64,000 bases of DNA from Raja brachyura (Eukaryota): contig OY740785.1 in NCBI GenBank assembly GCA_963514005.1, positions 73,160,001-73,224,000 of the forward strand, read 5' to 3'. Position 1 is the first letter of the stretch; the number at the start of each line of letters is the position of its first letter. The notes beneath the pieces were generated by a model. That model was not told where the DNA came from and ran no database searches. It worked only from the letters and a program-made list of their open reading frames with translations. The translations under genes and the position numbers were made by a program. Below are positions 42,301-45,300 of the stretch, one piece after another.

Positions 42301-45300
42301 AAATATCAAAATAACTTCAAATTGCATCCTTTCTGAATGATCTTCTTTAGTAAACAGTATCCATTTAAATATTTGGCCTCAAATATCAAAAAATAACAAA
42401 ATGCATTTTCTCCAATAATATTTGTGTTATTTTATTACATCCTGATAGATACAAATCTTGGTGAAATGTAATATATTAGTTAATTTGTTTAACAACTTAG
42501 TGGTGCCAATTAGCAATCCTTTATTCCCTGGGACTTGTTTGAATGGAAAGCTATAGTGGTTGTAGAAAAATAGTGAATTTACAAATTCTATTGGGAAAGG
42601 CTATACGATGAAATTGACAACAGATGTGCAATATGGAAGAGTTGTTGGAATGGCAGCTAACATGGAGCAATGATCTGCAACTGCCAAAAATATATATTTA
42701 AACTCAGAAGACAAATAGAATCAGTGGGGAAATTGTATAAATGCCTGATATTGACCTCGTTGTAGGCTTTCTATTAATCATGCATAGATTTGGTAAGAAT
42801 TTGACTATGCAGCACCAGAACTTCTATATTTAATTTTATTTAAATGATTTAGTGTAAACATCCTATTACCACTTCTGGCGATCTGCAAAATAGTCTCCAA
42901 TAGCATTGTAAGCCTGCTCAAGCAAAGCATCGTCAGCATCACCAGAACCAGTCTTTAGTAATTGCAATACTCGAAACCAGTCTCCCAACTTGATCCTCAG
43001 ATCGATGGCCAGATCTCTAAACGTAGGATTGACAATAGTTACATGGAGTACATTCAGCATTAATGAGTACATTCAGCATTAACGTTATTCACCCATCCCA
43101 AAGCTAATCAAATAATAAAGAACATATTAAATTGGGGTCAGGATCCAAAGGTGTCCCCAAATCTACCACTGTCCTGATAAACTTAATGACCTAGCTGCCA
43201 AACCAGTAGATAATTCCAAATATGCGTCTGAAGGATACTCATCAGTACAGTAAACACCTTCTATCCATGTTTAGATACATCCTCTCAGCTTCTTCAAATC
43301 TTCCAAAGTAAGCTGCAACTTCTGCCTGTTTCATGGATTCACTCTGAAGATTTCCTAGACGTTTGACAAATTCAATCCCCTGGTAATCTTTACATCGGAC
43401 AAATGCCTGCTCCGCTGTTTTGAGGTCAAGTCTCTGTAGAGCAGCTTCTGCAAGTAGGCGCCTAAGATACAAGATAAAGCCGCTCATTAGCAAGCAAAAA
43501 ATTAGTCACATCTATTTATGTACCAGTATATTTTACAATATTAGAAAATAACATAATTGTAGTAAAGTGAAAGTTCATTATCATTTATACCTAAAATCAA
43601 AATAAAAAGCATAACTATTAGTGCATTTTAAAATAACCAATAATTTGTTACAATGATCTACAAAGTACTATTATGCATTCAACAGCAAATGTTAGAAGTA
43701 ATACATTTCTACAATATTGCCTCCAATAGCCACATACTGTACAGAAAATAAAAGAAGGGAACTGAATGACAGCAATTAAATAATTTTGCCCTTGTATGCT
43801 GGTTGCCAAGATTTTCTTGTGATTGTTCACACTTCTCTCACTTATTTTTCACATTTTCTTATTCAGAAACAAAGGTGCATTTGTACTTACATTTTTGAAA
43901 ACATATTCCATTACAGTTATTTATATTATAATTAGTTCACAGTGGCACAAGGTATGGCCCACCACTGCTATTACAAGGACAATAAGATATGGTCAATAAA
44001 TGTTACACTGCCAGCACTGCCAATGTTCCACAAATTAATAATTTTAAAAAAGCCAAGTCAAATATGGTTTCTTGAAGGATTAATGCCATTGGCATGAAAT
44101 CATCAAATTCCTAACAGATAAAATACACACATTCCAGACATTATGTTAAGGACAAAATGTACATGACTTCGTTTTTCCTTAACTTGTATTTCCAGACATC
44201 TATAAACTCCCAGTTCTGGTATCAGATTCTTGGGCTCATCTTAAAATGATGTATGTGGTCTCGGTGCTGGAGGAAGTTCCAGGATTTATTGTAGGAACTG
44301 CAATGTTTTTCCAGACCATAATTGTGTATGCATTGGAGAGGAGGGCAAGTCATGGCTTCATCATATACATACTATCCTTGGCCATTCTCATGGAAGAGGC
44401 TGAGAATCTGGAAGGAGTAGGCTAGACAAGTGATTGCAGGGCATGTTCTAGATCACTAAGACAGCAGCCACAGGTTAGTGGTGAACATTATGCTTGTGTA
44501 GCCAGTCAGATGAGTTGCTTCATCCAGGGTGGTGTCGAGTTTGAGTGTTGTGGAAGTAATATTCATCCAGGAAATGGGAGGGAATTTCATCACAAACCTG
44601 GCTTGTGTCTGATTGAAACTAGAAAGATTAAACGTCTGAAGAAGGGTCTCGACCCGAAACGTCGCCTATCTCCTTAGCTCCTTAGATTCGAGAAACTAGA
44701 ACTACCACATGATCTTTATGAGAATAGGGTTGGGGGTGGAGGGCACGTAATCCCTCATCACAACTTCTCATAAAATAAAGATCAAATTTCAAACTGGCAA
44801 GTTCTCATTTAATCTTTCTATTTTACTTCGAAGTCACGTGAGTGACTACGTGAAGACTTTAAAACTCTGTGATTTCGTGCCGCGGTTTATTGTAAAAGGT
44901 CTGGAAAGTCCGCTCATCCGACCATCCTGCTGTCGCTAGGATGCGGTCCAGCGGAACCTCCATGAACCTTGCTGCTGATGTAGTTGCAGCCCTGGTGGAG
45001 TGAGATTTAAAAAACATCAGTGTCCACTCCTGCGCAAGCCAATACATGTCTTAACGACCTGGAGATGGTCTGCACTGATACCTTCTTATGTGTTTTTTTA
45101 TGACTAATAAACATAGCCAGCTCAGTGCCTCTAAGATTCTTTGTAGCCTCTATATATTGGTGAATATATGTGACACCACACAATGTACGGTCCATAGGAT
45201 ATGCCAAAAAATCCAGCTTTAGACCTAACACACTGCTTTGCTTGATTAACTCATTTATATAGAATGTTATCTTGTTTGCAGACATAACCGTCCTGTCCAG

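Follow-up and report, generated by a model that had tools for sequence, protein, structure and literature searches.

In a stretch of 64,000 nucleotides (nt) from Raja brachyura (contig OY740785.1, positions 73,160,001 to 73,224,000; hereafter the window), we studied a short and very abundant repeat that bears a minimal hammerhead ribozyme core and is represented by a copy at 44634..44687 (+). Judged by its sequence and that of its genomic relatives, this repeat is the terminal repeat (pseudo-long terminal repeat, pLTR) of an abundant autonomous Penelope-like element (PLE) encoding a reverse transcriptase (RT), a zinc-finger linker and a GIY-YIG endonuclease. Copies carrying this pLTR end at either of two fixed 3' sites 34 nt apart, occur as inverted arms, are flanked by target-site duplications and show a pile-up of 5' ends accompanied by an extra G. 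We consider it quite probable that the repeat is the hammerhead-bearing pLTR of an RT and GIY-YIG PLE, likely of the Neptune type, and that its short copies are likely run-off cDNAs made up to the 5' end of an RNA that the hammerhead had left uncut.

The copy at 44634..44687 is a short pLTR piece of the young subfamily and has the same terminus as an RT plus GIY-YIG copy found elsewhere in the genome (L091, see below). Window coordinates apart, positions are counted from C3 of the hammerhead core (C3 = 0). The first base of the copy is G(-2) and its last base lies at about +52, the usual end at +94 not being reached. We recovered the 28-nt core of a minimal type I hammerhead at 44636..44663 (+), where an earlier reading of this DNA, made from the sequence only, had placed it. 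It consists of CUGAAGA (44636-44642), a bulged A (44643), stem II (44644-44647 with 44652-44655) and GAAA (44656-44659), then CG and UC, with a stem I of just 2 bp and a predicted cut after 44663. Among the 21 arms of the repeat in the window, this copy is the only one that combines the ACGU palindrome, both boxes and a 4-bp stem II. A likely 10-bp target-site duplication has its left copy at 44615..44624 (+), followed by 9 nt of filler, and its right copy at 44692..44701 (+), this assignment being uncertain because the 3' end of the copy is atypical. Young copies are repeatedly accompanied by a different short repeat family that has a palindromic end (window 44790-44860 (-), L184 and L397), and the 13 nt immediately to the left of the copy match that family in inverted orientation and may be templated filler.

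An autonomous Penelope with RT and GIY-YIG domains, for which the sequence-only reading had proposed a search, was found in the genome with the same pLTR downstream. One young copy of the repeat (L020) lies within a GIY-YIG frame, and the 3' end of that frame itself bears the same motif. The GIY-YIG peptide of L020 gave 79,979 first-look candidates in the genome, 150 of which were scored; at the top GIY-YIG loci the core was located 233-442 nt downstream in 24 of 30 cases, at other distances in 3 and was without match in 3. The copy L091, which is truncated at the 5' side and flanked by an 11-bp target-site duplication, carries a 477-aa frame with RT, CxxC and GIY-YIG and ends in the terminus of the subfamily to which the window copy belongs. 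For this terminus, 40 of 40 scored places were 98-100% identical, with varied truncation points, often an inverted partner arm, and an end at either of the two sites 34 nt apart. Full-length partial tandems (5' pLTR, open reading frame (ORF), 3' pLTR) are represented by L141 and L370, with one frameshift each, and truncated and inverted arms were present in L110-L139. RVT_1 and GIY-YIG domains were matched in the frames of L078 and L141, both under Pfam curated cut-offs. A 7.1-kb near-perfect palindrome (99.3%), made of two 3.5-kb arms of the young element, occupies L140 1208-8336.

Protein relatives numbered 1,860 at E<=1e-20 among 7,989 scored, and the named proteins of highest identity (63-73%) came from sharks and rays. 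The linker CNRKRCYTC, which precedes the GIY-YIG domain, fits the zinc-finger-like CX2-5CXXC linker of the Neptune clade. Such a linker is described as common to Neptune and Nematis (PMC8557442), and the PLE clades reported from vertebrates are Neptune and Poseidon only (10.64898/2026.07.22.740005). By these sequence features the element is likely of the Neptune type.

To describe the young copies we used the first 82 young arms on contig C1, picked by a 35-mer lying outside the core, with an upstream window of 700 nt, so that for starts near -630 to -680 the length is a minimum. A 34-nt tail was present on 32 of the 82 arms; target-site duplications of 7-18 bp were present in many copies, not all. 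Upstream, 26 of these unselected arms extend into the 3' untranslated region (UTR) or the ORF of the element, which does not agree with the previous suggestion of a separate non-autonomous, retrozyme-like element. In a scan limited to the window, none of 11 tandem-repeat rows was a head-to-tail array of the unit; the only joins of two units were isolated ones (L173, L177 and window 40702).

The family is extremely abundant. In 51 stretches of 10 kb, sampled from large contigs at round-number positions, a profile built from natural copies detected 168 arms, which extrapolates to about 0.9 million arms in the 2.7-Gb genome; the profile gave no match in shuffled versions of the 574 kb searched. 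One 35-mer of the young subfamily had 53,498 exact matches in the genome, against none for its reversed control. The full core was present in 86 of the 189 arms examined; within these 86 arms, N7 was A in 78, G12 was retained in 59 and G16.2 in 53, the last two positions being lost because both sit at CpG sites that decay, and core and stem II were both intact in 25. The n of CUGAnGA had been proposed as a specially variable position, which the predominance of A at N7 contradicts within the family. Stem II showed just two two-sided changes in 340 cells (four pairs) over the same arms. The covariation of stem II claimed for the copies of this genome was thus not recovered, and appears instead when related elements of other organisms are compared, as described below. 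The six subfamilies, which were defined on the downstream sequence, gave a different picture at the level of their majority sequences: 2 of 28 core columns vary vs. 19 of 60 downstream columns (p=0.015), and five of the six retain all catalytic positions and the palindrome. Preferential conservation of the core, the absence of which would have told against a hammerhead, was therefore observed across subfamilies. The per-copy conservation of catalytic columns (0.96 vs. 0.91) was not used since full cores had been selected by alignment.

By its core features the motif is, as had been proposed, a minimal type I hammerhead of the PLE kind: CUGAnGA, GAAA, UH, a bulged base, the G10.1-C11.1 pair and a palindromic helix III (ACGU). 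Rfam hammerhead models matched nothing in the window at E<=5 and nothing in 44600-44720 at E<=10, and Rfam returned for the inverted pairs hairpin-type microRNA (miRNA) matches only, below gathering scores. Among related elements (39-63% protein identity) at 80 metagenome loci, a descriptor scan recovered 16 sense and 8 antisense matches, compared with 0-3 in shuffles; 19 of the 24 share the layout of the fish motif and 8 are situated 95-118 nt past the endonuclease. We aligned 11 of the metagenome motifs with two fish copies, near-duplicates and non-matching scan matches having been dropped. In this 13-sequence alignment, 95.2% of the cells were paired vs. 65.4 +/- 3.3 in shuffled alignments and 12-40% in slid controls, and we counted 30 two-sided changes vs. 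9.6 +/- 2.2, none of 500 shuffles being as high. Sixteen columns were invariant. Stem II belonged to the search filter; stem I did not, yet it pairs at 87%. N7 was A in 6, U in 4 and C in 2 of 12 relatives. The covariation across relatives, the shared layout and the conservation of the core among subfamilies thus argue, at the level of sequence comparison, that the motif and the minimal hammerhead of PLEs are truly homologous.

Homology does not imply that the ribozyme is active in this fish. Stem I has 2 bp (a third pair is formed in 1 of 52 copies) and relatives mostly have 3-5 bp. In predicted monomer folds the core pairs with +35 to +55, and the probability of stem II did not exceed 0.024 in five fish RNAs vs. 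0.24-1.0 in nine relatives; the fish motif therefore presents neither the stem I of about 4-5 bp nor the fold forming stem II by which a hammerhead would be recognized. From its stem I and the monomer folds, the fish hammerhead is predicted to be weak or switched off, with its core hidden. A dimer model reached -12.7 vs. -19.7 kcal/mol for the best cofold, values compatible both with dimer cleavage and with its absence. One could go further and suppose that it is vestigial in the fish lineage, the motif being retained as a promoter or protein-binding element after cutting was lost. The short stem I, the low stem II probability and the absence of a pile-up of starts at the predicted cut site would fit such a loss. 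However, catalytic positions and palindrome persist in the five subfamily majority sequences mentioned above, a 2-bp helix I is described in Penelope of Drosophila virilis (PMC4209133), and the ribozyme of the anole element is reported to cut only with protein, uncut RNA being the main template (PMC11167929). We consider the loss of cutting a doubtful, although serious, alternative; it is compatible with our preferred explanation and bears on activity only.

The informative property of the family is the distribution of its 5' ends. About two-thirds of the young arms (56/82) are only about 60-135 nt long and begin at or shortly after one site: 38 of the 82 start at -8 to 0, 18 at +2 to +37, 2 at -149 to -9 and 24 at -451 or beyond. 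Their 3' ends cluster at about +94 and about +128. Exact genome-wide counts of apparent starts in core-containing young arms were 2,679 at -1, 7,033 at -2, 4,464 at -3 and 4,611 at -4 (the last with a pattern one base shorter, 17,781 arms in all having C at -4). Starts within four bases of the core (-1 to -4) thus account for 18,787 of 31,957 exact young cores (59%). The base preceding the -3 start was G in 2,356 of 4,464 cases (53%; 27% expected), and that preceding the -2 start was G in 63 of the first 100 (30% expected, p=1e-11). Inverted junctions can make such a G by microhomology, and we therefore checked solo -2 copies separately: of 39 consecutive -2 loci, 24 were solo, with G as the preceding base in 16, T in 7 and C in 1 (p=2e-4). 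Fillers between duplication and start ended in G in 11 of 13 cases, and three -3 copies read duplication, single G, element. As a control, G preceded the start in 0 of 21 internal truncations of solo long copies, two more having been left out because the element's own base there is G. For -4 starts, read by eye, G preceded about 18 of the first 100.

In full-length copies TTATATC is located at -30 from A(-3), itself within CCAGTCT, a placement that we take to fit the spacing of TATA and initiator. An extra 5' G in retroposed copies is generally attributed to the cap. The pile-up with its extra G is thus likely to mark, as far as genomic sequence can tell, the capped 5' end of an uncut RNA. Two other origins of the short copies were considered and rejected. 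Use of the upstream CAG as a splice acceptor does not explain them, there being no common upstream exon and duplications abutting the start, although full-length RNA may use this CAG. They do not behave as cleavage products either, only 2 of 82 starts falling at the cut site (+28), both at ambiguous palindromic junctions. Among metagenome relatives, L299 and L312 have TATAAA-like boxes about 35-40 nt before the core and the inverted arm of L352 begins about 9 nt before the core, hinting that the RNA of these relatives also starts just upstream of stem I. The locus L123 joins +350 to the core start, again with G before the start.

These observations can be assembled into the following scenario. 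RNA polymerase II would start 30 nt past the TATA-like box of the upstream pLTR, at an initiator that precedes the core by 2-3 nt. The element protein would nick the target DNA and begin reverse transcription inside the RNA, at +94 or +128, by analogy with the anole element, for which reverse transcription in vitro is described as beginning internally at two neighbouring sites, whose positions set the tail, and as extending both strands (PMC11167929). Both start sites should be present near either end of the RNA. A start at the 3' pair would yield long, randomly truncated copies, and a start at the 5' pair would run off at the RNA end after about 97 or about 131 nt, with an added G likely due to copying of the cap. 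Inverted pairs would be two run-off cDNAs, one from each nicked strand. The short copies, lacking the TATA-like box, would mostly be dead on arrival, and the inserted RNA would be one that the hammerhead had not cut.

A bolder version combines run-off with element renewal. The near-cap run-off of RT would be a strong-stop-like step that normally jumps to the matching 3' pLTR and rebuilds a promoter-bearing pseudo-LTR, the short copies being aborted products, and the helix would restrain the hammerhead. Seamless junctions in L141 and L370 fit such a jump, and fit read-through or circular templates equally. Taken as a whole we hold this version to be rather unlikely. If true, the pseudo-LTR would be rebuilt much as retroviral LTRs are, with hundreds of thousands of aborted products in one genome, and the cap-proximal hammerhead would be kept inactive by a conserved helix until the element protein refolds the core.

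Several observations weigh against a capped, uncut RNA end as the source of the short copies, or against parts of this interpretation. Eighteen of the 82 arms begin inside the core or past it. Inverted junctions also carry G (9/12 at -2, 8/25 at internal truncations), in part by microhomology. The match to a TATA box is weak, and a splice acceptor (pyrimidine tract, CAG) can be read from the stretch just as well; the intron of D. virilis Penelope is described as ending at helix I (PMC4209133). Core conservation among subfamilies could reflect promoter function. The window copy that we started from has C before its start and an atypical 3' end. In the search for RNA reads on the element, the raw-read run X19 gave poly-C matches only; the contigs of X1, X2 and X6, which derive from other organisms or metagenomes, are uninformative on starts, cuts and splicing. 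The last group of adverse observations concerns the origin of the short copies. One variant occurred only in short arms (12/49 vs. 0/22 long arms, p=0.013, 11 arms being unreadable), so that not all short copies share the sources of long copies. The window piece 40702-40805 (-) and L173 (G000:C1 ~660,000), which differ in age, are each interrupted at +229 and resume at the core start, possibly through a preferred template-jump site or a small tandem unit, and X1 contigs from another organism have the tail joined to the core start; the +229 joins and these contigs together indicate that small ORF-less source units may exist.

The latter observations are those expected from a self-propagating non-autonomous element, SINE-like (short interspersed element) or retrozyme-like, whose short copies or small tandem units would produce their own transcripts and depend on the Penelope protein for mobilisation in trans. 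The number of arms extrapolated for the genome would also suit such an element, and retrozymes are reported from one chondrichthyan (Li et al. 2026; 10.64898/2026.07.22.740005). However, nearly one-third of the young arms are contiguous with ORF-bearing sequence, a second variant is evenly distributed (A in 5/26 long and 11/56 short arms), the window has no tandem array of the unit, the TATA-like box is missing from short copies, and a circular or cut template would not yield -3 and -2 ends with an extra G. We thus find such an element quite improbable as the general source of the short copies. In another alternative, cDNAs begun at the 3' pLTR would undergo ordinary 5' truncation. The boundary of core and pyrimidine tract would then be a place of strong pausing or annealing, due to RNA structure, to a bound splicing factor or to microhomology, and no true RNA end would exist there. 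This alternative could invoke the stable helix predicted to join +35 to +55 with the 5' portion of the core, the pyrimidine tract and CAG directly upstream of the core and the Drosophila intron ending at helix I (PMC4209133), but appears very unlikely because the G excess is limited to -3 and -2 starts (0/21 internal solo truncations, about 18/100 at -4), duplications often directly abut the start and there is no common upstream exon.

In the window itself, the 21 arms found with the profile correspond to 15 insertions (six inverted pairs and nine solo copies), grouped by eye, close to the "about 14 copies" counted previously. Both boxes flanking a 4-bp stem II were present in only 3 of the 21 arms. 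Inverted pairs, tails and target-site duplications are features beyond that earlier count. A young head-to-head inverted pair occupies 34260..34466, with arms 100% complementary, a 34-nt tail on the + arm and a 14-15 bp target-site duplication (from 34246 and from 34467); CUGA is missing in both arms. Older inverted pairs are present at 11594..11759, where the - arm retains both boxes (11664-11691), 8074..8214, with one arm tailed, 10471..10573, with most of the core lost, 18497..18574, with the core lost, and 37592..37709.

The variants listed by the sequence-only reading on the minus strand (40664-40691, 11664-11691 and 46410-46432) were found as written. The first belongs to an older solo copy at 40601..40695 (-) with both boxes, N7 = C and the palindrome lost; fused directly upstream of this copy is a piece of the element covering its 5' UTR and ORF start (40702..40805 (-), +126 to +229, 82% identical to L141). 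The last belongs to a solo young-type copy at 46341..46433 (-) with a UUCG loop and a U-G pair; its change is one-sided and the CUGAnGA box is absent. The decayed copies noticed earlier were also recovered, near 13749, 39350 and 57121: a solo copy with part of stem II deleted at 13749..13831 (+), a copy at 39297..39361 (-) and an old solo copy beginning at -4 at 57121..57213 (+). Other decayed copies are a solo one that begins near the predicted cut site (19475..19536 (-)), one without core (53821..53881 (+)) and an old one (55619..55693 (-)).

The window contains several other elements. Three overlapping long frames at 27893-32411 (-) (535, 732 and 363 aa), with RVT_1 and tyrosine-recombinase domains and an inverted repeat nearby (27409-27723), presumably form a fairly intact DIRS-like retrotransposon. 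Fragments of a long interspersed element (LINE) with RT and a common 3' end (60807-62389, 22218-23194, 16766-17492, 40953-41530, 12337-12644) resemble, in our judgement, CR1-type LINEs, and a dispersed repeat with a tRNA-like head (25373-25546, 33342-33542, 36369-36570, 54428-54507, 55883-56083) is one that we take to resemble the HE1 SINE of elasmobranchs. At 46388-49198 (-), no Pfam match was obtained for three consecutive long frames (286, 401 and 212 aa), and the copy at 46341-46433 overlaps the end of the first frame. Two minisatellites share a short motif (57917-58335, 46-bp unit x 8.9; 58715-58922, 48-bp unit x 4.3).

Hammerheads in Penelope pLTRs, inverted arms and tails are already published, and the family assignment is in itself ordinary. 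The value of this family lies in a very large natural data set on PLE copying and on the role of the PLE ribozyme. If the pile-up and its extra G correspond to a capped RNA end, a transcription start has been mapped from DNA alone and uncut RNA is the template in vivo. Such an end would argue against a circular template for the short copies and would offer a testable route to pseudo-LTR formation. About one million such arms would in practice be mis-annotated as SINEs or miRNA-like hairpins.

A literature search at the level of titles and abstracts yielded no paper that treats this family in elasmobranchs or describes run-off copies marked by a cap, a result on which the supplements of PMC4209133 could bear. 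The following comparisons refer to the accessible text of each source. The motif resembles the minimal hammerhead ribozymes of metazoan PLE pLTRs (PMC4209133) in being of type I, with a bulged base before G10.1, the G10.1-C11.1 pair and a palindromic 15.2-16.2, as well as in its pLTR location and in the prevalence of single motifs from truncated PLEs. It differs from them by a stem II of 4 bp and a stem I of only 2 bp, and its copy number is far above the 4,000-9,000 motifs of coelacanth and Xenopus, cartilaginous fish not being among the examples in the text consulted.

A mechanistic parallel is PAc, the Poseidon element of Anolis carolinensis (PMC11167929), which likewise has two internal RT starts whose spacing gives the tail, cutting and extension of both strands, uncut RNA as main template and a ribozyme about 100 nt upstream of the RT starts. 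In contrast to PAc, the ribozyme and both putative RT starts are here in the 5' UTR (the first ATG being at about +163) and the linker has a CxxC motif; the account of PAc consulted mentions no class of copies that run off at the 5' end of the RNA. The element also shares with endonuclease-containing (EN+) PLEs of the Neptune/Nematis type (PMC8557442, PMC3846280) an RT with C-terminal GIY-YIG, the zinc-finger-like linker, 5' truncation, partial tandems, inverted pLTRs, one-sided tails of 30-40 bp, target-site duplications and TATA and initiator-like motifs in the pLTR; it departs from their description by the large class of arms of about 60-135 nt beginning at about one site. Finally, non-LTR retrozymes (10.64898/2026.07.22.740005) are similar in being non-coding, derived from PLE pLTRs, equipped with a type I hammerhead and present in one chondrichthyan. 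Their definition, however, requires a head-to-tail tandem in which two or more complete ribozymes follow one another, and independence from an ORF-bearing element, whereas the copies described here are solo or head-to-head, have PLE tails and duplications and grade into ORF-bearing copies, with 26 of 82 young arms running into element sequence.

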